Shown: positions 13,017-32,545 of the stretch, piece after piece
Numbering within the stretch: position 1 is the stretch's first letter
Layout: every line of letters starts with the position of its first letter
Assembly (NCBI GenBank): GCA_035623825.1
Contig: DASPSR010000063.1
Coordinates: 1-64,000, forward strand
DNA from: Nitrospirota bacterium
GTDB taxonomy: Bacteria > Nitrospirota > UBA9217
Direction: 5' to 3'
DNA: 64,000 nt
Translations under genes and position numbers: made by a program
The notes under the pieces: generated by a model
The model's input: only the letters and a program-made list of their open reading frames with translations
Told to the model about the DNA's origin: nothing
The model's database searches: none

Positions 13017-13212
13017 GTTATGCTCCTCCTGTACCTATCGGGTCTTGTTCGTCTACCCGTGCAAAAGCGATAAGATGAATACCCCGAAGAATGACCACCG
13101 AGAGGCGTGTCGGGATCGAACGGTTGCCAGGCCGGGGAATGCTCAGCTGATCCGTTGCCGCAACGCATTGTCCAAGAGGCCCCCTAAAGCGCGCTTACGG
13201 CTCGATCATCAT

Positions 13213-13836: not shown

Positions 13837-14103
13837 GGCTCCCTCCTCCCAGCATATTGTATCGTATTTGACCAGGCGGAAGCAAGACCGAACCAGCCCT
13901 TGTTTTTCCCCAACGTTTCATCCGGGCATCATATCCATGGGAACAGACTGGACGCCTGTCCTCCCCGGCGAGGGAACATGCCATTTGCAGCTCCGATGCC
14001 GTCCGGCCGGATTCTCGTAAGATGCTGAACCCCTTGAGTTTTTCTTATAGATGAGTAAAAAAAATTAATACAGAACCAATCTTGTCCTGTTATAATGTTT
14101 TGC

Positions 14104-14132
14104 TTGACAAAATATTTATCGTGGCTTATTAT
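14104..14132 (+). promoter_or_regulatory. sigma70-type promoter of nuo operon
   Basis: TTGACA-17 nt-TATTAT about 57 bp upstream of nuoA. Confidence 0.7.
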
Positions 14133-14189
14133 GCAAAAGTTTTAGACTTTCTGCTAATCCAAAATATGATAATTTACAGGGAGTAGTGT

Positions 14190-14564
14190 ATGACGCCAAG
14201 TACCTATCTTCCGGAACAGTACCTGCCGGTAGTGGTTTTTCTGCTGCTCGGCTTGGCGGTCGGCTTTGGCATGCTGATCGCAGGATGGTTCATCCGGCCC
14301 CGGAGACCTTATCCTGAAAAGCTGATTACGTACGAGTCCGGTATCACCCCCTTCATGGATGCCCATCAGAAGTTTTCTATCCGCTATTATATTGTAGCCA
14401 TGCTATTCCTCATTTTCGATATTGAAGCCGTTTTCCTCTATCCGTGGGCCGTTGCCTATGGGCAGATCGGCCTTTACGGATTTGTGGAGATGGTGATCTT
14501 CGTAGTAATCTTGCTCGTAGGATATTTCTACGCATGGAAGAAGGGGGCTCTCGAATGGGAGTAG
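14190..14564 (+). CDS. nuoA: NADH-quinone oxidoreductase subunit A
   Basis: [35 protein letters not shown]. Confidence 0.95.
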
Positions 14565-15034
14565 TGCAGAATCTCTTTGACGAAGGATATATTTCCACGA
14601 CCATCGATGGGTTCCTCAATTACTGCAGGGCCTGCTCCATCTGGCCGATGACGTTCGGGCTTGCATGCTGCGCCATCGAGATGATCCAGTACTATTCCGC
14701 GCCCCAGCATGATTTCGACCGTTTCGGCACGGTCCCGCGCCCTTCACCGCGGCAGTCGGACCTCTTGCTCGTTGCCGGCACTCTGTCGAAAAAGATGGCG
14801 CCGATCGTGCGCCGCGTGTATGACCAAATGCCTGAGCCCCGGTATGTGATCGCCATGGGGAGCTGCGCCGGATCAGGCGGCATCTTCAACACCTACGCCG
14901 TGGTACAGGGCGTTGACAACATCGTCCCGGTGGATGTGTATATCCCCGGCTGTCCGCCGCGGCCTGAAGCGCTGATGTACGGCATAATGAAGTTGCAGGA
15001 GAAGATCAAGAAGGAAAAATATATCAGAAAGTAG
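14555..15034 (+). CDS. nuoB: NADH-quinone oxidoreductase subunit B
   Basis: [32 protein letters not shown]. Confidence 0.95.
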
Positions 15035-15059
15035 CCCCGGAGGACTCGATAGAGGTTGT

Positions 15060-15530
15060 ATGGACCCTTTACAAATAGCCAAGATGATTGAAGAGAAGTT
15101 TGCCGGACAAGTGCTCGGCACGATGTTTTATGCTGGCCAGGTCGGTGTCTCGCTCAAGAAAGACATGATTAAAGATGTTTGTCTTTATCTTCGTGATGAA
15201 CCCTCGCTCAAGATGGACCACCTCTCTGATCTCACCGCGGTCGATTTTTCCAGGTATCCCGGGGACCCCGGACCCCGGTTCGAGGTCGTGTATAACATGA
15301 TATCCACCGTATACCGCCACCGCATTCGCCTAAAGGTCAGAGTACCGGAGGAGGACCCGCGGGTAGACTCGGTTGCCTCGATCTGGCAAACGGCTAACTG
15401 GCATGAACGCGAGACCTATGACCTTATGGGAGTCAGGTTCGACGGCCACCCTGACCTCCGCAGGATCCTCCTGCCCGAGGACTGGGAGGGTCATCCGCTC
15501 AGGAAAGAATATCCACTGAAGGGATATTGA
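15060..15530 (+). CDS. nuoC: NADH-quinone oxidoreductase subunit C
   Basis: [32 protein letters not shown]. Confidence 0.95.
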
Positions 15531-15675
15531 AACGACAAGCGCCAGTGAGCAGGAACTGAATCCTTCATGATTTCCTAGCACCAATCACAAATAAAACCGT
15601 TTCGGAGATTGGGATTTTGATGCTGGATATAGGCTGAAATCTGAATTTTGGAATCTGATAATTAATGGTGAATAT

Positions 15676-16869
15676 ATGTCCGTTACCGTGCCGAAAGAGA
15701 TCGTCCAAAAAGAAATCACCCTGAACATGGGGCCTCAGCACCCGGCCACCCACGGCGTGCTTCGCCTGGTGCTCGACCTGCAGGGCGAGACCGTGGTGGG
15801 CGTCGATCCGCGGCCAGGCTACCTTCACCGCGGGATCGAGAAGTGGATGGAGAGCAGGACCTACCATCAGATCATCCCCATGACCGACCGGTTGGAGTAT
15901 ATCACCTGCATGAACAACAACCTGGGCTGGGTGGTTGCCGTGGAGAAGCTTGCCGGAATTACGGTGCCGGAGCGGGCGCAGTTCATCAGGACGCTGATGG
16001 CCGAGCTTACGCGGCTCTCCGGGCATCTTGTGTGGCTGGGGACCCACGCCCTTGACATCGGCGCCATGACGGTCTGTATGTACACCCTCCGGGAACGGGA
16101 ACTTGTCCTCGATCTGACGGAGATGGTGACGGGAGCGCGTCAGACTGTGAGCTATGTCCGCATCGGCGGTGTGCGGAACGATATCCCCCGGGATTTTATC
16201 GACAAATGCCGGGAGTTCACCGAGCTCTTTCCCAAGCGGCTCGAAGAGTATGATACGTTGATTCGGGAAAACCGCATCTGGCTCAAGCGCACCGTGGGGA
16301 TCGGCGTGATGACGCCGGAGGACGCGGTCAACTACGGCCTCACCGGCGGCACGCTGCGTGGGTCGGGCGTGAACTACGACCTCCGCAAGGTCGAACCCTA
16401 TGCCGCGTACGACAAGGTGGATTTCGAAGTGCCGCTTGGAAAGAACGGCGACGTCTACGACCGGTACGTTGTGCGAATCAATGAGATGCGCCAGAGCAAC
16501 CGGATCATCAGGCAGTGCCTTGACATGATGCAGCCGGGCCCGATCAAGACCGATGACCCGCGCTATGCAGTACCCGAAAAGATCGATGTCATGAAGAGCA
16601 TGGCATCGCTGGCCCACCAGTTCGTGCTCATGAGCAAGTGGGTGCCAATGCCGAAAGGCGAGGTATATGTGGCGACCGAGGCGCCGAAGGGCGAGCTCGG
16701 CTTCTATATCGTCAGTGATGGCAGCGGAAGACCATACCGCGTTAAGATCCGCGCCCCATCGTATGTTCACATAAGCGCTCTTCCGAAAATGGTGATTGGC
16801 CATATGGTGGCAGATGTTATCGCATGCATCGGGACCATTGACATCGTGCTCGGCGAGTGCGACCGGTAG
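15676..16869 (+). CDS. nuoD: NADH-quinone oxidoreductase subunit D
   Basis: NMGPQHPATHGVLRL, GYLHRGIEK, EAPKGELG, DIVLGECDR. Confidence 0.96.
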   Translation: MSVTVPKEIVQKEITLNMGPQHPATHGVLRLVLDLQGETVVGVDPRPGYLHRGIEKWMESRTYHQIIPMTDRLEYITCMNNNLGWVVAVEKLAGITVPERAQFIRTLMAELTRLSGHLVWLGTHALDIGAMTVCMYTLRERELVLDLTEMVTGARQTVSYVRIGGVRNDIPRDFIDKCREFTELFPKRLEEYDTLIRENRIWLKRTVGIGVMTPEDAVNYGLTGGTLRGSGVNYDLRKVEPYAAYDKVDFEVPLGKNGDVYDRYVVRINEMRQSNRIIRQCLDMMQPGPIKTDDPRYAVPEKIDVMKSMASLAHQFVLMSKWVPMPKGEVYVATEAPKGELGFYIVSDGSGRPYRVKIRAPSYVHISALPKMVIGHMVADVIACIGTIDIVLGECDR

Positions 16870-16883
16870 TGGAGAACCACCGG

Positions 16884-17240
16884 ATGAAATTGAGAGAGAT
16901 AATCAAACTCCTTCGTGCCGATGTTCTTGCGGGCGACGGCCTCGTCGATGAGATCGAGGTGGACTGCTGCTTCAGCGCAGACCTCATGAGCGATGTGCTG
17001 GGCCGCACTCATGCGAACGGGATCCTTATCACGGGCATCACAAATCCGCAGGCAGTCCGGACTGCCGATATCGCCGACATCCGGGCGGTCTGCGTTGTGC
17101 GCGGAAAGCAGCCGGAGGCCGACGCCGTGTCCCTGGCAAAACAGAAGGATATCCCACTATTCGTCACGAAGCTGACAATGTTTGAGGCATGCGGCATACT
17201 GTACATGAACGGCCTTAAGGCAGTAGGCGAGCGGCAATAG
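16884..17240 (+). CDS. DRTGG-domain protein
   Basis: SADLMSDVL, LITGITNPQAVRTA, VRGKQP. Confidence 0.82.
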   Translation: MKLREIIKLLRADVLAGDGLVDEIEVDCCFSADLMSDVLGRTHANGILITGITNPQAVRTADIADIRAVCVVRGKQPEADAVSLAKQKDIPLFVTKLTMFEACGILYMNGLKAVGERQ

Positions 17241-17244
17241 ACTG

Positions 17245-18198
17245 ATGGCACAGATGGGCAAAGAGCAGGGGACGCTGGACCGGGTGACCAAGACCCAGGA
17301 GATGGTCTATGAGGTCTCCGTGGGCGAGGTCATGGCTCCCAAGATGGTCACCGTGGGGCCGGAGCAGACCATGTCGGAGTTCAGAATCCTCTTGCGGGAC
17401 AACCGCATCTCCGGCACGCCGGTGGTCGAGAACGGCAAGCTCGTGGGCATGGTCAGCATAGAAGACCTGATCAACGCCCTGTATGACAACGCTATAAATG
17501 CTCCCATACGGGAGAGGATGAAGACGAAGATAGAGTGTCTGTACAGCGACGAACTGCTCGTTCACTGTATCGCCAAGTTTTCCAAGTACGGGTATAGACG
17601 GTACCCCGTATTGAACCGGAATGGGGAGCTGGTCGGCATCATCACCAAAGGGAGCATCGTCGAAGGGCTGCTCAGGAAGCTTGAGATCGAATACGAGCAG
17701 CATGAGGCCAATGCTTCCCTGGCGCGGCAGCGGCCTGCGATGCGAAAGTTCTTTGAGGACGTATCTGCAGACGAGATCAGCTTCACCTTCAAGTATAATG
17801 TTACCGGTCAGACCCTGAAGGACGCGGGAAAGGCCGCAAGCGAGCTCAAGAACGCGCTCAAGAAACTGGGAGTCTGCCCGCCGCTTCTCAGGCGGATCGG
17901 GGTCGCCACCTATGAGGCGGAGATCAACCTCGCCTCGTATACAAAAGGCGGTGAGATCAGGGCACAGGTTGAGAAGTGGGGGATCATCGTAGAGGTGATC
18001 GATCATGGCCCCGGCATCCCGGATATAGAGCTGGCGATGAAGCCCGGATACTCCACGGCCCCCGATTGGGTCCGGGAACTGGGGTTCGGCGCGGGCATGG
18101 GGCTCGTGAACATAAAGAAATGCTCCGATGAAATGGATCTCAAATCATCGGTGCCCGAGGGAACACATCTGACCATGCAGTTCTACTATACGAGCTGA
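17245..18198 (+). CDS. CBS-pair + anti-sigma-factor-type (RsbT/RsbW-like) Ser/Thr kinase fusion
   Basis: N-terminal tandem CBS (ISGTPVV, RYPVL...VGIITKG); C-terminal YEAEIN, DHGPGIPDIELAMKPGYSTA, GFGAGMGL. Confidence 0.85.
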   Translation: MAQMGKEQGTLDRVTKTQEMVYEVSVGEVMAPKMVTVGPEQTMSEFRILLRDNRISGTPVVENGKLVGMVSIEDLINALYDNAINAPIRERMKTKIECLYSDELLVHCIAKFSKYGYRRYPVLNRNGELVGIITKGSIVEGLLRKLEIEYEQHEANASLARQRPAMRKFFEDVSADEISFTFKYNVTGQTLKDAGKAASELKNALKKLGVCPPLLRRIGVATYEAEINLASYTKGGEIRAQVEKWGIIVEVIDHGPGIPDIELAMKPGYSTAPDWVRELGFGAGMGLVNIKKCSDEMDLKSSVPEGTHLTMQFYYTS

Positions 18199-18211
18199 CG
18201 GGAACAAGCCG

Positions 18212-18553
18212 ATGAATCTGAACAACATAGTAAAGGAATTCGGTCTGGAAGTGAAAACCGGTTCTGACCGCCTTGATCGCGAGGTGACGGGGGGCTACGT
18301 GAGCGATCTCCTATCAGACGTGCTGGCACATGCGGATGAAGGGATGCTCTGGGTCACGCTCCACATTCATCAGAATATCGTGGCCGTCGCGGCGCACAAG
18401 GATTTGGCGGGGATCATCCTGGTCCAGGGCAGGGATCCGGAAAAAGAAACGGTGATCAAGGCCGAAGAAGAGGGGATCCCGATCATGGTGAGCAGCCTCT
18501 CGGCCTTCGAACTCGTTGGCAGACTGTACAAGGCAGGGATCCGTGGCGCTTAG
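18212..18553 (+). CDS. DRTGG-domain protein (HPr-kinase N-terminal-like)
   Basis: GGYVSDLLSDVL, WVTLHIHQNIVAVA. Confidence 0.82.
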   Translation: MNLNNIVKEFGLEVKTGSDRLDREVTGGYVSDLLSDVLAHADEGMLWVTLHIHQNIVAVAAHKDLAGIILVQGRDPEKETVIKAEEEGIPIMVSSLSAFELVGRLYKAGIRGA

Positions 18554-19289
18554 GCGCATTAAAGCTGACCTGCATGTTCATACATGTCTGTCACCCTGTT
18601 CAGGTCTGGACATGTCGCCTCGTGAAGTTGTAAACGCGGCTCTCAAGAAGGGTCTCGACCTGATCGGCGTGTGCGATCATAACTCCGCAGAAAACGTTCT
18701 GGCTGTCAAGAAGGCGGGAGAACGGAACGGATTGATGGTGATCGGCGGGATGGAGGTCGCCTCTTCCGAAGAAGCGCACATCCTGGTGTTCTTTGACGAT
18801 GACGACGACCTTCTTGGATTCCAGAAGCACATCTACAGGCATCTGGACGGAAGGAATGACGAACATGCCTTCGGCCTCCAGGTGATCGCAGACGACGAAG
18901 ACGGGGTGACCGGTTTCTGCGACCGTCTTCTGATCGCGGCAACGTCGCTCCCGGCCGAAGCAATCGTGGCGGAAGCACGCATGGCAAAAGGAGAGAGCCT
19001 GGTGATCGCCGCACATGTTGACCGTGAGGCGTTCAGCATGATTGGCCAGCTGGGATTTATTCCTCCCGGTCTTTCCCTGGACGCTGTGGAGATATCTCCC
19101 CACATCGCCGTAGCAGACGCCCGGAGACGGTTCCCTGAATGCACGAAATACCCCGTTATCACCGGCTCCGACGCGCACCATCCCGAGGACGTCGGGAAGC
19201 GGTACACCTGCTTCACCGTTGCAGACGGGACAATAGCGGAGATCAGGATGGCCTTGGCGGGCAGGGACGGCAGAAAGACGGAGTGCTGA
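18543..19289 (+). CDS. PHP-domain phosphoesterase
   Basis: DLHVHTCLSPC, DHN, GMEV..EEAH, AHVDR, SDAH. Confidence 0.88.
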   Translation: MALRRIKADLHVHTCLSPCSGLDMSPREVVNAALKKGLDLIGVCDHNSAENVLAVKKAGERNGLMVIGGMEVASSEEAHILVFFDDDDDLLGFQKHIYRHLDGRNDEHAFGLQVIADDEDGVTGFCDRLLIAATSLPAEAIVAEARMAKGESLVIAAHVDREAFSMIGQLGFIPPGLSLDAVEISPHIAVADARRRFPECTKYPVITGSDAHHPEDVGKRYTCFTVADGTIAEIRMALAGRDGRKTEC

Positions 19290-19293
19290 GGCC

Positions 19294-19830
19294 GTGGAAG
19301 ATATCTCGCTCCACATCCTCGATATCGTCGAAAACTCGATCCGTGCTGAAGCAAAGAGCGTAGAGATCATGCTGGCGAAGGATGACGAGCACGATCTCCT
19401 CCGGATAGAGATCAGCGATGACGGCAAGGGAATGGGGCCCGAGACGCTCGAAAAGGTCAGGGATCCCTTCTTCACGACCAAGAGGAAGAAGACCGGCCTG
19501 GGGATACCCCTTCTTGCGCAGGCGGCAGAACAAACAGGCGGCAAGCTCACCGTTGATTCCGCTCCAGAAAAAGGGACACGGGTGTCGGTCACATTCCGAT
19601 GGAGCCATATAGACCGGCCGGCGATCGGCAGCATGGCCGATACGCTGCTGACACTGATTGCAGGCCACCCGGACAGGGATTTTGTGTATGAGGAACGGGA
19701 TGGCGAGCGGGTATTCCGATTCGACACGCGTGAGATCAAGGACGATCTAGGCGATGTGCCGATCGCGTCCCCGGCGGTAATTGATGCAATCAGGGACTTG
19801 CTGGTGAATAACATACGACGCTTTGAATAG
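19294..19830 (+). CDS. Stand-alone HATPase_c (histidine-kinase-like ATP-binding) protein
   Basis: SLHILDIVENSIRA, DDGKGM, DPFFTTK, GLGIP; no sensor or DHp domain. Confidence 0.85.
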   Translation: MEDISLHILDIVENSIRAEAKSVEIMLAKDDEHDLLRIEISDDGKGMGPETLEKVRDPFFTTKRKKTGLGIPLLAQAAEQTGGKLTVDSAPEKGTRVSVTFRWSHIDRPAIGSMADTLLTLIAGHPDRDFVYEERDGERVFRFDTREIKDDLGDVPIASPAVIDAIRDLLVNNIRRFE

Positions 19831-19864
19831 CATTATTCCAAAGCAGCAGACGATGGAGATGATA

Positions 19865-20404
19865 ATGAGTAACGATACGGTGGCACCGAAGGAAACAGCG
19901 GTTGCCGGAAAACAGCCCGCCTTGGACACGGGAGCGGACACCATAACGCCGGAGATGTATGAGAAGATCGACGGGATCATCGAGCGGTACAAGGACAAGC
20001 CCGGTTCGCTCATCCCGGTGCTCCAGCAGACGCAGGAGGTGTGCGGGTACCTGCCGCACCTCGTGCAGCGCTATATCGCGAAAGGCATGAAGATGTCGCC
20101 GAGCGTGGTGTTCGGCGTTGCCACCTTCTATTCGTTCTTCACGCTCGTGCCGCGCGGCAAACACGTCATCAGGGTCTGTCTCGGGACAGCGTGCTACGTG
20201 AAGAGGAGTGAAGAGATCCTCGAGAAGATCAAGGATGAGCTGGACCTTGAGGTGGGGGAAATCACAAGAGACAAAAAATATTCTCTTGAAGCAGTGAGAT
20301 GTCTCGGCGCCTGTGGTCTCGCGCCGGTCGTCGTGATAGGAGCGGACACGTATGGCGACGTTGCCGCCACGAAGGTGATGGACATCATAAAGAAATATGA
20401 GTAA
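19865..20404 (+). CDS. nuoE: NuoE/HndA/HydC-like [2Fe-2S] subunit
   Basis: VATFYSFF, CLGTAC, CLGACGLAP. Confidence 0.92.
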   Translation: MSNDTVAPKETAVAGKQPALDTGADTITPEMYEKIDGIIERYKDKPGSLIPVLQQTQEVCGYLPHLVQRYIAKGMKMSPSVVFGVATFYSFFTLVPRGKHVIRVCLGTACYVKRSEEILEKIKDELDLEVGEITRDKKYSLEAVRCLGACGLAPVVVIGADTYGDVAATKVMDIIKKYE

Positions 20405-20505
20405 ATCCTGAACGCGAAATACGAAATTCTAAACAATATCGGGAAACCGCAACAGCAGGGATCTTGATATGAAGATTTAGAATTTCCCCTGTGAGGGGGG
20501 TAACC

Positions 20506-20883
20506 ATGGCAAAGCTGACGATTGCAGATTTGAAAAAGATCAAAGAAGATTACCATCAGGGACTGCGCGAGGGCGGGTTTCGGGCCAAGATCACGGTGCA
20601 TATGGGGACCTGTGGCATCGCAGCAGGTGCCAGAGGCATCATGAACACCATCATGGAAGAGCTCGCCAAATCCAACCTGAAGGACGTGGCGATCACCACA
20701 TCGGGCTGCGCCGGGCTCTGCAGCCAGGAGCCGATGGCCACAGTCGAACTTTCTGGAGAACCTCCCGTGAAATATATCTCGCTGACCGAGGAGAAGATGC
20801 GCAAGATCTTCGCGGAACATGTAGTAGGCGGGAAACCAGTCAAGGAATACGCCCTGGTCGTCGGGCATGAAACGACGTACTGA
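20506..20883 (+). CDS. Thioredoxin-like [2Fe-2S] ferredoxin-family protein (HndB/HydD-like)
   Basis: HMGTCGIAAGA, SGCAGLCSQEP, EHVVGGKPV. Confidence 0.85.
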   Translation: MAKLTIADLKKIKEDYHQGLREGGFRAKITVHMGTCGIAAGARGIMNTIMEELAKSNLKDVAITTSGCAGLCSQEPMATVELSGEPPVKYISLTEEKMRKIFAEHVVGGKPVKEYALVVGHETTY

Positions 20884-20920
20884 TGAATCCGGTTTAAACC
20901 GTTAAATGGGGTAAGGTAAC

Positions 20921-22711
20921 GTGGAGACAACATACCGCTCAAATATAATGATCTGCGCAGGGACGGGATGTGTGGCAAACGGCTCGCTCAAGGTGAAGGA
21001 GGCGCTCGAGACCGAACTGATCAGGCGAAACCTTCAGAACGAGGTCAAGATCGTCTTGACGGGGTGCAACGGGTTCTGCGCCAAAGGCCCGGTCATAGTG
21101 GTCTATCCCGAAGACATATTCTATCAGCTCGTGAAGCCTGAAGACGTGCCGCACCTTGTTGAAGAGCACTTTGTCAAGGGGAGGCCGGTCCAGAAATTCC
21201 TCTACACGCCTCCGGCGCAGAAAGACGCCATCCCCGTCATGAACGAGATCCCGTTCTTCAAACACCAGGTGCTGCGTGCGCTTCGGAACAGGAGCCTCAT
21301 CGACGCCGAGAAGATAGAGGAATACATCGCCCGTGACGGCTATATGGCCGCAGCCAAGGCGCTGACCGAGATGACGCCCGAGCAGATCGTCAGCGAGGTG
21401 AAGAAGTCCGGGCTGCGCGGAAGGGGCGGGGCCGGGTTCCTCACCGGCCTCAAGTGGGAGCTCTGCGCCCGCGTCTCAGGCGAGATCAAATATATACTGT
21501 GCAACGGAGACGAGGGCGACCCGGGCGCGTTCATGGACCGCAGCGTCATGGAAGCCGATCCTCATTCCGTTCTCGAGGGCATGATCATCGCGGCCAAGGC
21601 GATCAATGCCCACTACGGCTATATCTATGTACGTGCCGAGTACCCCCTTGCGGTGCACCGTCTTCAGCTTGCCATCGAGCAGGCCAAGGAGCGGGGCCTT
21701 TTGGGCCCGGATATCCTGGGCTCAGGATTCGCTCTGGAGATCGAGATCTACCAGGGTGCGGGTGCGTTCGTGTGCGGCGAGGAAACGGCGCTCATGGCAT
21801 CCATCGAGGGCAAACGGGGCATGCCGAGGCCAAAACCGCCGTTCCCCGCGGTCAAGGGCTTGTGGCAGCGGCCGTCGGTGCTGAACAACGTCGAGACCTT
21901 TGCGAATGTGCCCCCCATCATCCTGCACGGTGCGGACTGGTTCGCGAGCCTCGGGACCGAGAAGAGCAAGGGCACCAAGGTATTCGCCCTTTCGGGAGCG
22001 CTGAATAACATTGGCCTCGTAGAAGTGCCCATGGGCATTCCTCTCAAGACGGTGATCTACGACATCGGCGGCGGCATCAAAAACAACCGGAAGTTCAAGG
22101 CAGTGCAGATGGGCGGTCCGTCGGGAGGCTGCATTCCCCATTCGCTCATTGATACGCCCGTCGACTACGAGAACATCAACAAGACAGGAGCGATCATGGG
22201 ATCCGGCGGCATGGTGGTGATGGACGAGACCACCTGCATGCCGGCCATGGCCAAATTTTTCCTTGAGTTCACTGAAGACGAGTCCTGCGGCAAGTGCGTG
22301 CCCTGCCGGATCGGGAACAAGACGCTCCTGAGCATCCTGCAACGCATCACAAACGGCGAAGGCCGCGAGGGAGACATCGAACTTCTCTTGAACCTCTCTC
22401 AGCAGATCAAGGACACGTCGCTCTGCGGACTGGGTCAGACCTCGCCGAACCCGGTCCTCACGACGATCAAGTATTTCCGCGACGAGTATGAGGCCCATAT
22501 CAAGGAGAAGAAATGCCCGGCCAGGGTCTGCACGCCGCTGATCGAGTTCAAAGTGAACGAGGAAAAATGCAAAAAGTGCGGCCAGTGCTTCAAGAATTGC
22601 CCGGTGGGCGCCATAACCTGGGAGAAGGGCAAAGTGGCCTACATCGATCAGGAGAAGTGCACCAAGTGCAAGACGTGCATCAAGAACTGCAGGTTCTGGG
22701 CTATTGATTAA
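20921..22711 (+). CDS. nuoF: Long NuoF (HndC/HydB-type) flavoprotein with N-terminal [2Fe-2S] and C-terminal 2x[4Fe-4S] domains
   Basis: CAGTGC...CNGFC; GLRGRGGAGF; DEGDPGAFMDR; CGEETA; GGPSGG; ESCGKCVPCR; CKKCGQCFKNCP, CTKCKTCIKNC. Confidence 0.93.
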   Translation: METTYRSNIMICAGTGCVANGSLKVKEALETELIRRNLQNEVKIVLTGCNGFCAKGPVIVVYPEDIFYQLVKPEDVPHLVEEHFVKGRPVQKFLYTPPAQKDAIPVMNEIPFFKHQVLRALRNRSLIDAEKIEEYIARDGYMAAAKALTEMTPEQIVSEVKKSGLRGRGGAGFLTGLKWELCARVSGEIKYILCNGDEGDPGAFMDRSVMEADPHSVLEGMIIAAKAINAHYGYIYVRAEYPLAVHRLQLAIEQAKERGLLGPDILGSGFALEIEIYQGAGAFVCGEETALMASIEGKRGMPRPKPPFPAVKGLWQRPSVLNNVETFANVPPIILHGADWFASLGTEKSKGTKVFALSGALNNIGLVEVPMGIPLKTVIYDIGGGIKNNRKFKAVQMGGPSGGCIPHSLIDTPVDYENINKTGAIMGSGGMVVMDETTCMPAMAKFFLEFTEDESCGKCVPCRIGNKTLLSILQRITNGEGREGDIELLLNLSQQIKDTSLCGLGQTSPNPVLTTIKYFRDEYEAHIKEKKCPARVCTPLIEFKVNEEKCKKCGQCFKNCPVGAITWEKGKVAYIDQEKCTKCKTCIKNCRFWAID

Positions 22712-22777
22712 AACGAGCTCATAGTCGAATGCTGATTGCGATTGCCAGGAGCTCTTAGGTAAGAAGGTAAAGAACTT

Positions 22778-24901: not shown

Positions 24902-24909
24902 GAGCGAAC

Positions 24910-25998
24910 ATGCCAGATATGCATCAGATATTGAGTATCGTTTATACGCTTGTTATTCCCGTCGCAGCGCTTTTGGCCTTCATTCTGGCAAACGCCATGT
25001 ACCTGCAGTTGATGGAGCGCAAGGTACTCGCGCACATGCAGGGGCGGCTCGGTCCCATGCGGACCGGCTGGCACGGGATCCTTCAGCCCGTTGCCGACGC
25101 CGTCAAGTTCATCATGAAGGAAGACATCATCCCCGCCAAGGCTGACAAATGGGTATTCAGCATAGCGCCGGTCATCATGCTCGTCATGGCCTTCGGAGCC
25201 TTCGTTGCGTTGCCCTTCGGACCGTCAACGAATTTTTACGGCCTCCTCTCAAAGAAAATCCCCCTTTGGGTGGCGAACCTGAACATAGGCGTGCTTTACA
25301 TCCTCGCGCTGTCGAGCGTCGGCACATATGGCGTGATCATGGCGGGCTGGGCATCGAACAACAAGTACTCGCTGATGGGAGGTTTTCGTTCAGCGGCGCA
25401 GATGATCAGCTATGAAATCCCCATGGCCTTCGCCATTGTCACCGTCGTGCTCATGGCCGGGTCCCTGAACCTGTCCGATATCGTAAACGCCCAGACGCAT
25501 CGGTGGTTCCTTGTGGCACTGCCGGTAGGGCCGGTCGCCTTCTTCCTCTATCTCTTCTCCGGCATCGCGGAGACGAACCGCGTGCCCTTTGATTTGCCCG
25601 AGGCAGAGAGCGAACTTGTAGCCGGCTACTTTACCGAGTACACCGGCATCCGCTTCGGCCTGTTCTACATGTCGGAGTACCTGAACATGATGATCGTGTC
25701 GCTCCTCGCGAGCATCATGTTCTTGGGCGGCTGGTTGCCGGTCCAGATACTTCCCAACACGGCCATCGGCCATTTTGCCCCCATATCCCTGCTCAACAAG
25801 GCGCTGGCGGCCTTGCCGTCGACGCTCTGGCTTCTCGTGAAGCTGTATTTCTTTATCTTTTTCTACATGTGGCTGCGGGCAACTCTGCCCAGATACCGCT
25901 ATGATCAGCTCATGGCGATTTCATGGAAGATACTTCTTCCGCTCTCGCTTGCGACGCTGCTTGTTGCGGCATTCATGAGGCAGGCGGGCTGGCTGTAA
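24910..25998 (+). CDS. nuoH: NADH-quinone oxidoreductase subunit H
   Basis: ERKVLAHMQGRLGP, AQMISYE, AETNRVPFDLPEAESELVAG, PRYRYDQL. Confidence 0.96.
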   Translation: MPDMHQILSIVYTLVIPVAALLAFILANAMYLQLMERKVLAHMQGRLGPMRTGWHGILQPVADAVKFIMKEDIIPAKADKWVFSIAPVIMLVMAFGAFVALPFGPSTNFYGLLSKKIPLWVANLNIGVLYILALSSVGTYGVIMAGWASNNKYSLMGGFRSAAQMISYEIPMAFAIVTVVLMAGSLNLSDIVNAQTHRWFLVALPVGPVAFFLYLFSGIAETNRVPFDLPEAESELVAGYFTEYTGIRFGLFYMSEYLNMMIVSLLASIMFLGGWLPVQILPNTAIGHFAPISLLNKALAALPSTLWLLVKLYFFIFFYMWLRATLPRYRYDQLMAISWKILLPLSLATLLVAAFMRQAGWL

Positions 25999-26014
25999 AA
26001 GAGAGGTTGGCACG

Positions 26015-26491
26015 ATGAAGAAGCTAAAAAAACTGCTCAGGACCATTTTCCTTATCGAAATAGCCGAAGGGATGGCGTTGACGCTCAAAACCATGCTGAC
26101 TCCCGCGGTGACGCGGCAGTACCCGACATATAAGCGCAAACCGATCCTCGGGTCCCGCGGGCTCCATGCGATGCGGCGGGACGAAACAGGAAAGGGGGCC
26201 TGCATCGGATGCGGCCTCTGCGAGGCCGTATGCCCTTCGAAGGCGATAACCGTGGTGACCTCCGAGGGATCCGAACATGACAAGCTCGTGAATTCATACG
26301 AGCTAGACCTGCTCCGCTGCGTGTTTTGCGGTTTCTGCATCGATGCCTGTCCCGTTTCTGCGATATATCAGACGCCGGAGTTCGAGCTTTCCTGCTATTC
26401 ACGGAAAGATGCCTTCTATACCAAGGAGCGGCTGATCGAAGTGGGCGACCGATTTATGGGCGGAAAGGCGGTAAAGAAGCATGATCAATAA
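26015..26491 (+). CDS. nuoI: NADH-quinone oxidoreductase subunit I
   Basis: CIGCGLCEAVCP, CVFCGFCIDACP. Confidence 0.95.
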   Translation: MKKLKKLLRTIFLIEIAEGMALTLKTMLTPAVTRQYPTYKRKPILGSRGLHAMRRDETGKGACIGCGLCEAVCPSKAITVVTSEGSEHDKLVNSYELDLLRCVFCGFCIDACPVSAIYQTPEFELSCYSRKDAFYTKERLIEVGDRFMGGKAVKKHDQ

Positions 26492-26990
26492 GGTGATCTT
26501 CCTCTATTTTGCGGCAGTGATACTGGCGTCGGCCATCATGATGGTAACGCGGAGAAATCCCATCCATAGCGTATTGTTCATGCTGCTGCTGTTTTTCCAC
26601 ATTGCGGGGCTGTTCGTGTTGCTCAATGCCGAGTTCCTGGCCGCGGTCCAGCTCATTGTATACGCCGGCGCCATCCTCATCCTCTATCTCTTCGTGGTGA
26701 TGCTCCTGAACGTGGACAAGGAGAGCATAGCGGCCAGGGCGAACCGGTACTGGCCCTGGATAGCCGCATTCGGGATCCTCATTGCTGGAGAGGTAGTGCT
26801 CCTTGTTTCACGAGGGATCTTCCCCGCCGACGAGGGCCAAGAGCCGATGAGGCTCGCCTCCGACGGGGTCCTTTCTCTGGGGACGGAACTTTACACAAAA
26901 TATCTGGTGCCGTTCGAGATCGCATCGGTCGTGCTCTTGGTAGGGCTGGTCGGGGCTGTGATGCTGGCAAAGATAAAGACGAAGGAGTAA
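26481..26990 (+). CDS. nuoJ: NADH-quinone oxidoreductase subunit J
   Basis: NPIHS, AEFLAAVQLIVYAGAI, PFEIASVVLL. Confidence 0.95.
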   Translation: MINKVIFLYFAAVILASAIMMVTRRNPIHSVLFMLLLFFHIAGLFVLLNAEFLAAVQLIVYAGAILILYLFVVMLLNVDKESIAARANRYWPWIAAFGILIAGEVVLLVSRGIFPADEGQEPMRLASDGVLSLGTELYTKYLVPFEIASVVLLVGLVGAVMLAKIKTKE

Positions 26991-26995
26991 ATCGT

Positions 26996-27298
26996 ATGAT
27001 CCCCTTATCATGGTATGTGATCCTGAGCGCTGCTCTGTTCACCATCGGCGTGGTCGGCGTGTTCTCGAGACGTAATATCTTCATCCTTCTGATGTCCATA
27101 GAACTCATGCTGAACGCGGCCAACATCAATTTCATAGCATTCTCTCATTACCTGCAGTCCCTGACTGGGCAGATATTCGTGATCTTCGTCATCACCGTGG
27201 CCGCGGCAGAGGCCGCCGTGGCGCTTGCGATCATCATCCTGCTTGCAAGGAACCGCGGAAGTGTCTACGTCGACGAGTTCAACATCATGAAAGGGTAG
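26996..27298 (+). CDS. nuoK: NADH-quinone oxidoreductase subunit K
   Basis: SIELMLNAAN, VAAAEAAV. Confidence 0.95.
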   Translation: MIPLSWYVILSAALFTIGVVGVFSRRNIFILLMSIELMLNAANINFIAFSHYLQSLTGQIFVIFVITVAAAEAAVALAIIILLARNRGSVYVDEFNIMKG

Positions 27299-27434
27299 GG
27301 ATAGAGTCCCAGATCCCGGAAGCAAGTGCCATAGGCCCTTATCACCGAAGGAGAAGCGCGTTTTTTGATTTAGAGGTCGGCCGATGTCTGGGGTTGGGGA
27401 TTTGATTGGCAGATATTAAACCGAGGTGCACGAC

Positions 27435-29363
27435 ATGCTTACATACGCATTGATTCCGATCCTGCCGTTCGCCGGCTTCCTGATCGCGGGACTGTTCGGC
27501 AAGTATCTCAAGGAGAGGGCGGCATACGCCGCTATAGCCGGAGTCGTCGGCGCGTTTCTTCTTTCGTTCAGCACATTCCTCGACGTGCTCGACGGGACGA
27601 TCATAAATGAGAACCTCTATTCCTGGATTTCCATCGGCACCCTCAGCGTGAATGTAGGTTTCCAGATCGACCAGCTCACAGCGGTGATGCTCCTCGTGGT
27701 GACCACGCTCAGCTCCCTCATCCACATATACTCGGTGGGATACATGCACGGCGACAAGGGATATGCGCGCTTCTTCTCCTACCTGGCGCTTTTCACGTTC
27801 TTCATGCTTGTGCTGGTGATGGCCAACAACTTCCTCCTCATGTTCGTGGGCTGGGAAGGGGTGGGCCTCTGCTCCTATCTCCTCATCGGTTTCTGGTATG
27901 AGAAAAAATCCGCTTCGGATGCGGGCGTCAAGGCGTTTGTCGTGAACCGCGTCGGCGACTTCGGATTCGTGCTTGGAATGCTGCTTATCTTCAGCACGTT
28001 CGGCACCCTTGATTTCGCCGGCGTCTTTGCCGCCCTCTCCGGACCCGCGGCGAAGCAGAGCATTGCCCTGCTCGGCGGCAATATCAGCGTGGTCACCCTG
28101 ATCGCGCTTCTCCTGTTCCTCGGAGCGACGGGCAAATCCGCACAGCTCCCGCTCTATGTCTGGCTGCCGGATGCCATGGAGGGCCCGACGCCGGTCAGCG
28201 CCTTGATCCACGCCGCGACCATGGTAACCGCAGGGGTGTTTATGGTGTCGCGCTGCGCGCCGATCTTCTCGCTTTCGGAGACGGCGATGACAACGGTGGC
28301 CGTGGTCGGCGGCCTGACCGCGGTCTTTGCGGCGACCATCGGCCTCGTGCAGAATGACATCAAGAGGGTTATCGCATACTCCACTATCAGTCAGCTCGGA
28401 TACATGTTCCTGGGCCTTGGTGTTGGGGCGTTCTCCGCCGGCATTTTCCACCTCACGACGCATGCCTTCTTCAAGGGGCTCCTGTTCCTGGCGTCGGGCA
28501 GCGTCATCCATGCCCTGTCCGGCGAACAGGACATGCGCAAGATGGGTGCGCTCAAGTCCAAGATCAGCATCACCCATGTGGTCTTTATCATCGGATCTCT
28601 TGCGCTGGCGGGCATCTTCCCGTTCGCGGGGTTCTTCAGCAAGGATGAGATCCTCTGGAGCGCGTACAGCTCACCCGGGATGGGGAGGGTGCTGTGGCTC
28701 CTCGGCGTGGCAGGGGCGTTCATGACGGCGTTCTACTCGTTCCGTCTGATCTACCTGACGTTCTATGGGGAATCGCGCATAGACCATGAGGTCGAACACC
28801 ACGTGCATGAGTCGCCGAAGGTGATGACCGTACCGCTCATGATCCTGGCGTTCTTCTCCCTGACCATAGGATGGATCGGCATGCCGGGGGCGATCCTTCC
28901 CAACGTCAACCTGTTCGGAAACTTCCTCGCGCCAATCTTCCCGCATGCGGAGCATGCGGCCGCGGAGAGCCATGGCATCGAGAGATGGTTGATGCTCTTC
29001 TCGGTCCTGGTCGCGCTCTCGGGCATCAGGATGGCCTATTCCCTCTACGTGAAGAACACGTCGCTCCCGGACCGTATCGCTGACCGCTACAAAGGTGCCT
29101 ACAACCTGCTCCTTTCCAAGTATAAGATTGACGAGATATACAACTATCTTTTCGTCGATGGCCTGGTCCACAAGGTCGCCACGTTCCTGTACAAAGTCGG
29201 CGACGTCAAGATCGTTGACGGCGCGGTGAACGGCATCGCCAGACTCATCGGGACGACAAGCGAGCGGGGCCGGAGGATTCAAACCGGCTATGTGCAGCAG
29301 TACGCGTTCACCATGGGGCTCGGTCTCGTGGTGCTCGTTGGGCTTTATTATGTCTTGAAGTGA
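27435..29363 (+). CDS. nuoL: NADH-quinone oxidoreductase subunit L
   Basis: GWEGVGLCSYLLIGFW, KSAQLPLYVWLPDAMEGPTPVSALIHAATM; alternative GTG start at 27426. Confidence 0.96.
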   Translation: MLTYALIPILPFAGFLIAGLFGKYLKERAAYAAIAGVVGAFLLSFSTFLDVLDGTIINENLYSWISIGTLSVNVGFQIDQLTAVMLLVVTTLSSLIHIYSVGYMHGDKGYARFFSYLALFTFFMLVLVMANNFLLMFVGWEGVGLCSYLLIGFWYEKKSASDAGVKAFVVNRVGDFGFVLGMLLIFSTFGTLDFAGVFAALSGPAAKQSIALLGGNISVVTLIALLLFLGATGKSAQLPLYVWLPDAMEGPTPVSALIHAATMVTAGVFMVSRCAPIFSLSETAMTTVAVVGGLTAVFAATIGLVQNDIKRVIAYSTISQLGYMFLGLGVGAFSAGIFHLTTHAFFKGLLFLASGSVIHALSGEQDMRKMGALKSKISITHVVFIIGSLALAGIFPFAGFFSKDEILWSAYSSPGMGRVLWLLGVAGAFMTAFYSFRLIYLTFYGESRIDHEVEHHVHESPKVMTVPLMILAFFSLTIGWIGMPGAILPNVNLFGNFLAPIFPHAEHAAAESHGIERWLMLFSVLVALSGIRMAYSLYVKNTSLPDRIADRYKGAYNLLLSKYKIDEIYNYLFVDGLVHKVATFLYKVGDVKIVDGAVNGIARLIGTTSERGRRIQTGYVQQYAFTMGLGLVVLVGLYYVLK

Positions 29364-29445
29364 CGTGCGGAGAGCATAGGGAGGAGCGCAAAGGGCAGAT
29401 GCCTTTCGCTCCACGTCCCATGCTCTGTGTCAAAAGGAGTCATAC

Positions 29446-30990
29446 ATGCTCGAACTAAGATTGCATCAGCTCGATTATCCTCTGCTGAGCCTCATGATAT
29501 TCATCCCGGTGCTCGGCTCGTTCCTCCTGCTGTTCATACGGAACGCCGCTACGGTGCGCTGGGTCGCGCTTGGCTTCTCTTTCGTCGAGCTGGCCCTGTG
29601 TGTACCCCTGCTCCTTAATTTCGACAGCTCGATTCCCCACATGCAGTTCGGCGAGAGCCACACATGGATCGCCGCGTGGGATATCAACTACCGGCTCGGC
29701 GTTGACGGGATCAGCATCCTGTTCGTTGCGCTGACGGCGCTCCTCACGAGCATATCCATCATGGTCTCGTGGACGGCCATCCAGGACCGGGTGCGGGAAT
29801 TCATGATTGCCATGCTGTTCCTCGAGGCCGGTATGATCGGGGTGTTCACCGCGCTCGACCTCTTCCTGTTCTACATCTTCTGGGAGGCGATGCTCATCCC
29901 CATGTACCTGTTGATCGGCATCTGGGGCGGCCCCAACCGGCTTTACGCCGCGATCAAGTTCTTCCTGTATACTTTGGTCGGGAGCGTGCTGATGCTCGTC
30001 GGGATCATCGCGGTGTATGTCGCCGCGGGCAACACCTTCGACGTGCTCACGCTCATGAATCACAAATTCAGCTACACATTCCAGATGTGGGTGTTCGCCG
30101 CGTTCTTCCTTGCATTCGCGGTCAAGGTTCCCATGTTCCCGGTCCATACCTGGCTGCCTGATGCGCACGTAGAAGCGCCGACCGCCGGGAGCATCATACT
30201 CGCTGGCATCCTGATCAAGATGGGGGCCTACGGCTTCCTGCGGTTCTCGCTGCCGTTCTTCCCGGATGCGGCCATGAAGTGGACGCCGGCAATCATGGTC
30301 CTGTCCGTGATTGCCATCATCTACGGCGCATACATGGCCTTCGCCCAGACAGATTTCAAGAAGCTGATAGCCTATTCGAGCGTCAGCCATATGGGTTTCG
30401 TCACCCTCGGGATCTTCGCCCTGAACCTTCAGGGGCTTGAAGGCGGCATCCTCCAGATGCTGAACCACGGTGTTTCAACCGGGGCATTGTTCCTCGCCGT
30501 CGGCGTCATCTACGAACGGACCCATACGCGGCAGATTGCAGACTATGGCGGCATTGCGGCGAAGGTTCCGGTCTATGCGGCGTTCCTGCTGATCATAACG
30601 CTTTCGTCCATCGGCCTTCCGGGGACGAACGGCTTCATCGGCGAATTCACGATCTTGCTCGGCGCGTTCCTGCACTCGAAGCCGTACGCGGTGATCGCAT
30701 CGATCGGGATCATCCTCGGCGCGGGTTACATGCTCTGGCTGTATCAGCGTGTCGCATTCGGCACGATTACCAACCCACACAACGAGCACCTCGCGGATAT
30801 GAACCTGCGCGAGGTGGCGGCCGCGCTCCCGCTCGTTGTGCTCGTATTCATTATCGGCTTTTATCCCAACGCCGCGTTCGGCGTGATGCACGCTTCTGTA
30901 TCGAACCTGATGCAGCATATAAATGAAAAGGTCCAGACCGCTCCTGCTGTCACGCAGATGGTGAGCGACGTTCTTCGGATGTCGAATTGA
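29446..30990 (+). CDS. nuoM: NADH-quinone oxidoreductase subunit M
   Basis: FWEAMLIPMY, KVPMFPVHTWLPDAHVEAPT, IAYSSVSHMG. Confidence 0.96.
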   Translation: MLELRLHQLDYPLLSLMIFIPVLGSFLLLFIRNAATVRWVALGFSFVELALCVPLLLNFDSSIPHMQFGESHTWIAAWDINYRLGVDGISILFVALTALLTSISIMVSWTAIQDRVREFMIAMLFLEAGMIGVFTALDLFLFYIFWEAMLIPMYLLIGIWGGPNRLYAAIKFFLYTLVGSVLMLVGIIAVYVAAGNTFDVLTLMNHKFSYTFQMWVFAAFFLAFAVKVPMFPVHTWLPDAHVEAPTAGSIILAGILIKMGAYGFLRFSLPFFPDAAMKWTPAIMVLSVIAIIYGAYMAFAQTDFKKLIAYSSVSHMGFVTLGIFALNLQGLEGGILQMLNHGVSTGALFLAVGVIYERTHTRQIADYGGIAAKVPVYAAFLLIITLSSIGLPGTNGFIGEFTILLGAFLHSKPYAVIASIGIILGAGYMLWLYQRVAFGTITNPHNEHLADMNLREVAAALPLVVLVFIIGFYPNAAFGVMHASVSNLMQHINEKVQTAPAVTQMVSDVLRMSN

Positions 30991-31090
30991 AAATTGAAGG
31001 CTGGAGAACGCGGTAGTGAAGGCACGTAATGGGCGATTACCAATTTCCCATTTGCACTTTACACTAGAACGAGGTCTTTAAGGAGTTACC

Positions 31091-32545
31091 ATGTCCATCA
31101 TGTACCAGGATTTCTTGCGGTCCATAATGCCCATCAACGCCGAAGTGATCGTCGTCACCGTGGCGCTGATCGTGCTCATTCTCGATTTCTTTGTTGAGGA
31201 AGAGAGCAAATACTATCTTGGCTGGCTCAGTCTGGGCGGGATCATCTGGGCGGCGGCCGCCACGTATAACGTGATGGGCGCTAACGGCGCATTCTTCAGC
31301 GGGACGTTCCTGCTCGACCCCTTTTCGACCTTCTTCAAGTTTGTTTTCTACCTTGCCTGCGGACTCGGCATCCTGGTATCCATCAACTACTTGAAGATCG
31401 AAGACATTCGCCGCGGCGAATACTATGCGCTGATGCTGTTTGCCACGAGCGGCATGATGCTGATGGCCTCGGCTGGCGACCTCATCACCCTCTATCTTGG
31501 TCTGGAGCTTATGGCGCTCTCCATCTATATCCTTGCGGGGTTCATGCGGAGCGACAACCGGTCGAATGAATCAGCGATCAAGTACCTGCTCCTCGGCGCG
31601 TTCTCGTCCGGCATCATGCTCTACGGCATGTCGCTCCTCTACGGGCTTTCCGGCACTACGAACCTCGCGGGAATCCTGACGTTCCTGCGCGAAGCTGACC
31701 TCACGAATCCGGTGCTGTTCCTGGCCATGATCATGCTGGTCGTGAGCTTCGGGTTCAAGGTCGCGGCGGCGCCGTTCCACATGTGGGTCCCGGATGTGTA
31801 CGAAGGCGCCCCTACATCGGTAACGGCCTTCATGTCCGCAGGGCCCAAGGTGGCCGGTTTCGCCGTACTCCTCAGGGTCTTTACGTACGCGCTCGAACCT
31901 CTGCACGCGCACTCGACGGCGATCATCGCCGGCCTGGCCGTGCTCACCATGGCTGTCGGCAACATCATGGCCCTGTCCCAGACGAACATCAAGCGCATGC
32001 TTGCATACTCGTCTATCGCGCATGCCGGATACGCCCTGGTGGGGCTTGCCGCCGGCGGCCCGGATGGCGCAGCGAGCGTGATGCTCTACGTGTGCATCTA
32101 TGCCCTGATGAACATGGGCGCGTTCGGCGTGGTGATCATGCTTCGGAAAACCGGTGAGCGTGGCGAGGAGATAACCGACTTCGCAGGGCTCGGCAAGAGC
32201 AACAAGACGGCGGCGTTCCTCATGCTCATCTTCATGTTCTCCCTCACGGGAATACCCCCCTTGGCCGGTTTTGTGGGCAAATTCTATATCTTCAAGGCGG
32301 CGGTGGAGGCAGGGCTTGTATGGCTTGCGGTGGTGGGAGTGCTGTTCTCCGCCATAAGCGCGTACTTCTACCTCCGGATCATCATGATCATGTATATGAA
32401 CGAGCCCAAAGGGAGCTTCGAACTGACCACATCGCCCTCCCTTGCGCTTGCTCTGGCGATCTCGGTTACGGCCGTCATTGTCATCGGAGTATATCCGACG
32501 AACCTTCTGAACTTCGCACGCGCATCCATCATCGGGATCATGTAG
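31091..32545 (+). CDS. nuoN: NADH-quinone oxidoreductase subunit N
   Basis: ESAIKY, FKVAAAPFHMWVPDVYEGAP, KRMLAYSSIAHAGY. Confidence 0.96.
   Translation: MSIMYQDFLRSIMPINAEVIVVTVALIVLILDFFVEEESKYYLGWLSLGGIIWAAAATYNVMGANGAFFSGTFLLDPFSTFFKFVFYLACGLGILVSINYLKIEDIRRGEYYALMLFATSGMMLMASAGDLITLYLGLELMALSIYILAGFMRSDNRSNESAIKYLLLGAFSSGIMLYGMSLLYGLSGTTNLAGILTFLREADLTNPVLFLAMIMLVVSFGFKVAAAPFHMWVPDVYEGAPTSVTAFMSAGPKVAGFAVLLRVFTYALEPLHAHSTAIIAGLAVLTMAVGNIMALSQTNIKRMLAYSSIAHAGYALVGLAAGGPDGAASVMLYVCIYALMNMGAFGVVIMLRKTGERGEEITDFAGLGKSNKTAAFLMLIFMFSLTGIPPLAGFVGKFYIFKAAVEAGLVWLAVVGVLFSAISAYFYLRIIMIMYMNEPKGSFELTTSPSLALALAISVTAVIVIGVYPTNLLNFARASIIGIM

Follow-up and report, generated by a model that had tools for sequence, protein, structure and literature searches.

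A form of complex I with a bifurcating-type input module was predicted and named Nuo-Bfu by Schut et al. in 2022, with 51 sequences assigned to it (PMC9304861). As the text of that paper describes the class, a Nuo-Bfu complex has 14 subunits, oxidizes NADH and reduced ferredoxin jointly, reduces menaquinone and pumps four protons; its BfuB subunits fall into clade 38 (Deferribacteres, Proteobacteria) or clade 39 (Planctomycetes, Nitrospirae), and Geobacter sulfurreducens is given as an example. The core idea of a bifurcating-type complex I has been in print since then, and in our literature search, which covered papers open without subscription, the name Nuo-Bfu was found only in PMC9304861. 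Here we describe an operon of this kind in a 64,000-nucleotide stretch of a Nitrospirota genome (GTDB lineage Bacteria; Nitrospirota; UBA9217; assembly GCA_035623825.1, contig DASPSR010000063.1, positions 1 to 64,000), hereafter the window. The locus is a real, conserved member of the predicted Nuo-Bfu class that carries six accessory genes. The encoded complex probably merges electrons from NADH and reduced ferredoxin and passes them to menaquinone (confurcation), or works in the opposite direction and forms both from quinol. Two features go beyond the 2022 prediction as its text gives it, namely the six accessory genes within the operon and an exchange of input modules (heads) on the same pump within the family.

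The operon comprises 20 genes on the + strand (14190-32545) in the order nuoABCD, five cassette genes, a nuoE-like gene, a thioredoxin-fold gene, nuoF, nuoG and nuoH-N (Table 1), that is, 14 core complex I genes, a HydD-like gene and the cassette. Profile matches indicate that nuoA-D and nuoH-N are intact, and the nuoEFG position of the nuoA-N cluster is occupied by bfuABC-type genes, as in Type 3 Nuo-Bfu. The initial annotation had read a full nuoABCD...HIJKLMN operon, correctly for these genes, but overlooked the five between nuoD and nuoE. The PQHP.HG and RL.Y motifs of NuoD align with those of solved 49-kDa subunits, and the three antiporter-like subunits NuoL, NuoM and NuoN (with a single M) retain their central Glu/Lys motifs; the quinone module and proton pump are intact. 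The operon thus resembles canonical 14-subunit complex I (E. coli, T. thermophilus, P. denitrificans) in NuoA-D, NuoH-N and its quinone-site and pump residues, whereas its NuoF is ~170 residues longer and carries sites B2-B5, its NuoG has an extra [4Fe-4S] cluster (A4) and the operon contains six extra genes.

The best solved relatives of NuoF are bifurcating beta subunits (7t2r_B, E 1e-259; 7q4v_B, E 2e-244), which score much better than Thermus Nqo1 (8e-115). Its PF01512, PF10589 and PF00037 domains score over cut-off, and a weak SLBB match (PF10531, E 7e-4) falls under it. An N-terminal thioredoxin-like domain carries the B5 ligands C12, C17, C49 and C53 and the C-terminus eight cysteines for two [4Fe-4S] clusters (B3/B4), bearing out the initial description of a 596-residue NuoF with Fe-S domains at both ends. 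The B1 ligands are C456, C459, C462 and C502, and the B2 site consists of C439, H526, C532 and C537, with Thr477. In 53 of 53 aligned rows, the eight B3/B4 cysteines and the ligands of B2 and B5 are all unchanged, and within the block bfuB shows the strongest conservation, with a ratio of nonsynonymous to synonymous substitution rates (dN/dS) of 0.03-0.04. With the four cysteines of cluster C1 in the NuoE-like BfuC and the signatures A203-F204-M205, F283 in GAGAF and GGPSG at 398-402 (as defined in the texts of PMC7311640, PMC8880783 and PMC12018979), these ligands make up a complete BfuBC core. The same ligands and signatures are found in the HydABC(D), HydABCSL and Hnd enzymes (A. mobile 7t2r, A. 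woodii 7q4v, T. kivui 8a6t, T. maritima 7p5h), and NuoF does not have the pattern of canonical non-bifurcating NuoEFG, in which a short NuoF carries xFK, Tyr and a non-GGPSG segment and lacks B2-B5.

Individual residues refine this picture. GAFMDR (with AFM at 203-205) and GGPSG had been listed initially together with NNVETF, and the first two stand; NNVETF was rejected as a bifurcation signature, as its Phe, at position 327, varies among 115 AFM-type rows (F 79, L 21, Y 14, W 1) and is W or Y in two proven bifurcating enzymes. The published signature Phe (F282 in A. mobile, PMC8880783; F281 in T. sibiricus, PMC12018979) corresponds to F283. A His/Cys segment noted in NuoF is present as H526/C532/C537, but a Thr replacing Cys at B2 is described as indicating Zn (PMC12018979), and, given Thr477, this site probably holds Zn rather than an Fe-S cluster. 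The Glu that selects NADH over NADPH (E286 in T. sibiricus, as reported in PMC12018979) is kept as E288, which points to NADH rather than NADPH as substrate; of the NAD(P)H originally proposed, only NADH is retained.

In NuoG, all 20 ligands of clusters A1-A5 are present, A3 and A5 included, and, as in BfuA of Type 3 Nuo-Bfu, there is no catalytic domain of its own. The Cys/Sec-His pair of the formate dehydrogenase Mo/W site was not found in NuoG, profile searches of NuoG matched neither PF01568 nor an H-cluster domain, and the NiFe CxxC motifs were not found in NuoD. We therefore rejected a hydrogenase or formate dehydrogenase function, in agreement with the earlier remark that neither an [FeFe] H-cluster nor a [NiFe] large subunit is present. 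Unlike HydABC(D), HydABCSL and Hnd, which the head otherwise resembles, the window complex has a quinone module and proton pump as its output.

Several lines of evidence rule out a misassembly of two loci. The order nuoD-cassette-C-D-B-G (C, D and B denoting BfuC, HydD and BfuB) recurs in 29 other genomes among 63 family loci, which were chosen by matches to window or NuoG genes rather than sampled at random and of which 14, cut by contig or locus ends, were left untagged. Contigs from other runs, possibly of one sampling campaign, span the nuoD/cassette, cassette/nuoE/HydD/nuoF, nuoF/nuoG and nuoG/nuoH junctions, and G+C content, overall (GC) and at third codon positions (GC3), is even over the operon. 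The relatives seen are metagenome assemblies, and the closest named NuoF relatives (91-92% identity) come from Nitrospirota assemblies, including 'Nitrospirae bacterium GWC2_56_14'.

Set against Nuo-Bfu as described in PMC9304861, the window operon agrees in the replacement of NuoEFG by BfuABC in the middle of a nuoA-N operon and in clusters A1-A5 of BfuA; menaquinone, the third substrate of the described class, is a likely substrate here too, in line with the quinone-type NuoD and with mqnC in the genome. Nitrospirae are named there in clade 39, and membership of the window BfuB in that clade is plausible, by phylum only. The operon differs in having both HydD and the cassette, neither of which figures in the 14-subunit description in that text, and in belonging to a family with head exchange, which is likewise absent from the description. 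Both are also missing from 12 Geobacter-type Nuo-Bfu loci, in which the B5 site has three cysteines rather than the four of the window protein. In a tree of BfuB (all trees here are quick searches, those of BfuB and of the operon backbone under LG+G4), the window protein groups with the BfuBs of loci L118 and L120 and of stand-alone heads of other Nitrospirota (support 93-95 in the Shimodaira-Hasegawa-like approximate likelihood ratio test, SH-aLRT). A clade uniting window-type and Geobacter BfuBs is rejected (approximately unbiased (AU) test, p 0.0054), whereas a single origin of all complex-I-linked BfuBs is not (AU p 0.07), so that an origin of the window BfuB independent of that of Geobacter is not established.

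The neighbours in this tree have features of their own. L118 and L120 are delta-proteobacterial Nuo-Bfu loci that have HydD and a cassette split around nuoABCD, and L118 has Ser in place of the NADH-selecting Glu (CGESTAL). Receiver-fused stand-alone heads of other Nitrospirota (G036, L106-L117) share with the window operon a sister BfuB, a HydD-like gene, the cassette and an empty NuoG-like A subunit, and differ in lying outside the nuo operon, in a BfuC fused to a response-regulator domain and in mostly lacking the CBS domains. Receiver-fused BfuC, HydD, BfuB and a catalytically empty NuoG-like subunit stand alone in this way in L106, L108, L109 and G036 (L050, L060), and in three loci such a head is divergent from a plain nuo operon; it is likely a second head in trans. 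In genus g11, a degenerate BfuB (L101:7152-8924, + strand; L102:5410-7305, - strand) keeps all Fe-S ligands, lacks the GDEGDPGA loop and has GGSAG for GGPSG. This copy, possibly a flavin-less, ferredoxin-only head, is the only one in the operon in G187 and stands in tandem with an intact copy in G099.

Among the accessory genes, 20506-20883 had been taken for an extra thioredoxin-like ferredoxin. Its product has three invariant cysteines, short of the four that ligate a [2Fe-2S] cluster in such ferredoxins, and that assignment was dropped. One source names the protein HndB, and its matches to PF01257 (22.3) and NF041612 (32.8) are both under cut-off. A predicted fold of BfuB, BfuC and HydD scored 0.69, against 0.00 for the best of three controls, with contact agreement between runs of at least 32% and a predicted local distance difference test (pLDDT) value of at least 77 for the partner; among solved pairs 116 of 157 attain the mark used for this score, and among mismatched pairs 2 of 215, figures that are only roughly valid for this three-protein set. 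The model supports binding of the HydD-like protein to BfuB, making it a candidate 15th subunit; in the predicted interface, helix 2-25 of HydD lies against residues 133-145 and 257-267 of BfuB.

The five-gene cassette between nuoD and nuoE encodes a DRTGG-domain protein, a CBS-CBS-HATPase, a second DRTGG-domain protein, a PHP-domain protein and a stand-alone HATPase (both DRTGG matches are just under the Pfam cut-off). The GHKL boxes are found in 43 of 46 homologues of the CBS-CBS-HATPase, the PHP metal-ligand motif in 40 of 45 and the motif of the stand-alone HATPase in 45 of 48, and all 12 genes tested, the five of the cassette included, have dN/dS values of 0.03-0.16 in comparisons with two genomes of the same genus, which indicates purifying selection. 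From these domains we favour a nucleotide-sensing Ser/Thr kinase (CBS domains plus a SpoIIAB-like fold) and a PHP phosphatase, with the DRTGG proteins as putative substrates or adaptors. In HydABC(D) and Hnd operons, too, hydD and genes for His-kinase-like proteins occur as accessory genes, three Bacillota loci (L130, L153, L173) have the same cassette ahead of [FeFe] hydrogenases, and we found no paper joining DRTGG, PHP and a hydrogenase operon. The family provides a setting in which the functions of HydD and of the cassette, a companion of many Bfu enzymes, could be assigned.

The bifurcating-type head is one of two found on this pump. The HydD-like gene is present at 72% identity or more in 47 of 64 family genomes (two further matches at 54-55% were excluded), and a plain NuoF (F'), which carries the non-bifurcating TFK/Tyr/GGAST pattern, in 21. 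Crossing the two lists yields 36 genomes with the Bfu head only, 10 with the plain head only, 11 with both and 7 with neither; as many family genomes are incomplete, 'only' means that the other head was not found with the query used. Besides the window arrangement, we observed nuoD-(cNMP gene)-E'-F'-G in nine loci (cNMP, cyclic nucleoside monophosphate) and, in two loci of genus g4 (G006 and G022), both heads in one operon with a single NuoG of the family lineage (nuoD-cNMP-E'-F'-cassette-C-D-B-G). In nine loci an E'F'G' module lies outside the Bfu-bearing operon. In the NuoG tree, all 26 sequences of the family fall into one clade (support 100) irrespective of head. In the backbone tree of 11 non-head subunits, plain-head operons arise three times, and AU tests reject a single clade of plain-head operons (p 7.5e-5) as well as one of Bfu-bearing operons (p 8e-65); on these trees, at least three head changes are needed. 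In G018 the backbone is nested among Bfu operons and the NuoG comes from the plain-head clade, a mismatch that suggests replacement of the whole head module. On the backbone tree, the Bfu head is found on the deepest branches of the family (rows gappy, 34-48% filled; support 83-94), so that recent insertion of a Bfu head into a plain operon is not supported, and the simplest assumption is an ancestor with both modules. We also discarded a tie between head type and the Wood-Ljungdahl, Dsr or Rnf systems, as acsB (10/10), dsrA (9/10) and rnfC (9/10) are found in the 10 plain-head-only genomes and show no split by head. Nothing on head exchange in complex I was apparent in our literature search.

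These genomes constitute natural matched pairs, with the same pump and NuoG lineage under bifurcating, plain or both heads, in which proton stoichiometry (H+/2e-), the need for ferredoxin and the way complex I evolves by modules become directly comparable. A tentative idea, which we hold to be possible rather than probable, is that one pump serves two heads swapped in vivo, which would compete for the same complex I and in genus g4 for the same NuoG, altering gearing and the supply of reduced ferredoxin from quinol; the kinase/phosphatase cassette and the HydD-like 15th subunit would then control the bifurcating head, and the cNMP-binding protein would pair with the plain one. The gene for this stand-alone cNMP-binding domain (L046:13041-13595, - strand; homologues in L064-L081) precedes plain E'F' in nearly all family loci seen; it is absent in L067, and L071 ends before that point. 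In L051 (G009:C9:3000-16000), an E'F'G' module is flanked on one side by a second nuoIJKLMN set and on the other by the nuoA with which the Bfu operon begins.

The window genome itself encodes acsB, dsrA, rnfC and mqnC (menaquinone pathway), and the class UBA9217 is described in PMC10203281 as consisting mainly of sulfate reducers that use C1 compounds and hydrogen. A second, canonical complex I lies on contig C27 (~162800-178300, L057; fused NuoCD of 582 residues, NuoG of 934), which suggests a distinct job for the bifurcating-type complex. Two further BfuB modules lie on C22 (~9800-17500, L058) and C13 (~217900-225200, L059): one has a TGA-interrupted formate dehydrogenase (probably selenocysteine) beside acsB and formyl-THF (formyltetrahydrofolate) ligase, the other an extra 203-residue Fe-S gene adjoining CO dehydrogenase.

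Catalysis, stoichiometry, direction and the role of the cassette we infer from what can be read in the genes, namely anatomy, ligands, conservation and the three operon states. In the mechanism we propose, NADH would be oxidized at the flavin mononucleotide (FMN) of BfuB, reduced ferredoxin would dock at B3/B4 and the FMN-B1-C1 site would merge their electrons, which would then pass through NuoG (A1, A2, A3) and NuoI to N2 and menaquinone in NuoBD, with NuoHJKLMN pumping about 4 H+ per 2e-. In reverse, menaquinol and the proton-motive force (pmf) would supply the Wood-Ljungdahl pathway with NADH and reduced ferredoxin. The HydD-like protein may clip onto BfuB as an accessory subunit, the cassette may be a kinase/phosphatase-type control unit travelling with the head, and the head would be a module exchanged for a plain NuoEF head several times in the family. 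In Bfu enzymes, NAD and ferredoxin are described as sharing one side of the FMN-B1-C1 site (PMC9304861), and the A chain as carrying mid-potential electrons (PMC9304861, PMC12018979). The Bfu ligands and signatures, the quinone-type NuoD and the intact pump subunits uphold the initial annotation's membrane-bound, ion-pumping complex I with a HydBC(D)/Hnd-type head, and its suggestion of reverse electron transport fits as well.

Energetic considerations favour joint oxidation. With potentials taken from the text of PMC9304861, menaquinone at -74 mV and an assumed pmf of 150-180 mV, a pump moving 4 H+ per 2e- gives menaquinone a calculated effective potential of -374 to -434 mV, already below NADH. 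By the same arithmetic, NADH to menaquinone allows 2.3-3.3 H+/2e-, and the mean of NADH and ferredoxin 3.5-4.2. Averaging the two donors would thus supply the energy that NADH alone lacks against menaquinone, and these values make confurcation of NADH and ferredoxin onto menaquinone most likely. The effective acceptor would lie between NADH and ferredoxin, in the niche that H2 occupies for HydABC. NADH alone carries too little energy for a menaquinone-linked complex I to pump four protons, a problem that a ferredoxin-coupled head would solve, and the reverse mode, if real, would give an anaerobe a way to obtain from quinol the reduced ferredoxin that it needs to fix CO2.

The complex could instead be an ordinary NADH:menaquinone oxidoreductase that has no need of ferredoxin; its additional clusters would then be an evolutionary leftover or act as a redox buffer. 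In 10 genomes a plain TFK/Y/GGAST head does go with the same pump and a NuoG of the same clade, and no metabolic marker separates the head types; we nevertheless consider this unlikely, given that no other gene of the block is as conserved as bfuB, that the B2-B5 ligands are invariant as described above, and that the two heads of 11 genomes, like the second complex I of the window genome, would be redundant if they did the same job. It is more improbable still that NADH or ferredoxin enters independently, as in ferredoxin-fed NDH-1, with no obligatory coupling: B3/B4 could serve as the ferredoxin dock and each donor alone is downhill to menaquinone, yet none of the gating elements (C1 domain, B2 hinge, GGPSG) has been lost, and characterized Bfu enzymes are described as coupling both donors, the T. 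sibiricus enzyme needing all three substrates (PMC9304861). The initial annotation had raised the option that ferredoxin is reduced while NADH reduces quinone, with NADH as a mid-potential donor split between the two in the manner of EtfABCX/Fix. A site for NADH does occur in one complex together with branches to ferredoxin and to quinone, and without pumping the sum is near equilibrium; with 4 H+ pumped against the effective acceptor potential calculated above it is uphill, and Bfu wiring as described in PMC9304861 has NAD and ferredoxin on the same side, so that we regard this option as very improbable. Equally hard to credit is a C-D-B-G block forming a soluble enzyme for another partner and sharing a transcript with a complex I of 11 subunits that has no head. 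Stand-alone modules of other Nitrospirota do contain the closest relatives of BfuB, and the sequence of NuoG resembles alpha subunits of formate dehydrogenase more than it does the solved NuoGs, but NuoG has no catalytic site, its clade supplies the sole NuoG of plain nuoA-N operons in relatives, and the block occupies the EFG position in the 29 other genomes.

Some observations weigh against confurcation by a 15-subunit complex. Bifurcation is predicted from motifs of the head, and motifs are no proof of it. The remark in the initial annotation that no characterized example was known holds for biochemistry, in that our literature search found no assay of any Nuo-Bfu, but not for the system, which had its name and prediction by 2022. 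The HydD fold score may stem from similarity to solved HydBs, which have HydD-like domains at their N-termini. HydD and HisK of A. mobile are encoded in the operon and are reported absent from the purified enzyme (PMC8880783), and A. woodii HydE is likewise described as not a subunit (PMC3315566), HisK and HydE being non-subunits of unknown role in these accounts. Finally, plain-head-only genomes have the same acsB, dsrA and rnfC, which makes the Bfu head dispensable there, and Rnf could be an alternative supplier of ferredoxin.

Table 1. Features of the window operon, with positions in the window and supporting matches.
Feature	Position	Strand	Basis
Candidate sigma-70-like promoter TTGACA-17-TATTAT, upstream of nuoA	14104..14132	+	11/12 matches, best of 11 sites
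nuoA	14190..14564	+	PF00507; DIEAVF motif
nuoB, cluster N2	14555..15034	+	PF01058, NF005012; four N2 Cys motifs; start inferred from 159-aa homologues
nuoC	15060..15530	+	PF00329, TIGR01961
nuoD, quinone-reducing type	15676..16869	+	TIGR01962 above cut-off; PQHP.HG and RL.Y; no NiFe motifs
DRTGG-domain protein 1, cassette	16884..17240 (ORF from 16857)	+	PF07085 E 2e-5, under cut-off; dN/dS 0.08
CBS-CBS-HATPase_c_2 protein, SpoIIAB/RsbW-like kinase fold, cassette	17245..18198	+	PF00571, PF13581; TIGR01925 under cut-off
DRTGG-domain protein 2, cassette	18212..18553	+	PF07085 E 3e-5, under cut-off; dN/dS 0.13
PHP-domain metallophosphoesterase, cassette	18516..19289 (likely start 18543)	+	PF02811, PF13263
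Stand-alone HATPase_c, HydE/HisK-like, cassette	19294..19830	+	PF02518; no HisKA match
NuoE-like BfuC/HydC/HndA, cluster C1	19823..20404 (likely ATG 19865)	+	PF01257; four invariant Cys
HydD/HndB-like thioredoxin-fold protein, 125 aa, 3 Cys, candidate 15th subunit	20506..20883	+	
NuoF-like BfuB/HydB/HndC, 596 aa; B5, FMN/NAD, B1, B2, B3, B4	20921..22711	+	
NuoG/BfuA, 707 aa; clusters A1-A5, no catalytic site	22778..24901	+	TIGR01973 462 vs cut-off 470
nuoH	24910..25998	+	PF00146
nuoI, N6a/N6b	26015..26491	+	TIGR01971; two ferredoxin motifs
nuoJ (26481-26990) and nuoK (26996-27298)	26481..27298	+	PF00499, PF00420
nuoL, nuoM, nuoN	27426..29363, 29446..30990, 31091..32545	+	TIGR01974, TIGR01972, TIGR01770 above cut-off

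A scan for promoters and terminators came out at chance level, with 11 promoter sites against 9.5 in shuffled sequences, so that the promoter candidate upstream of nuoA amounts to a consensus match only. Upstream of the operon (8627-13836) the window contains a PAS histidine kinase and sigma-54 response regulator pair, together with DsrC-like, DsrE-like and methyltransferase genes.

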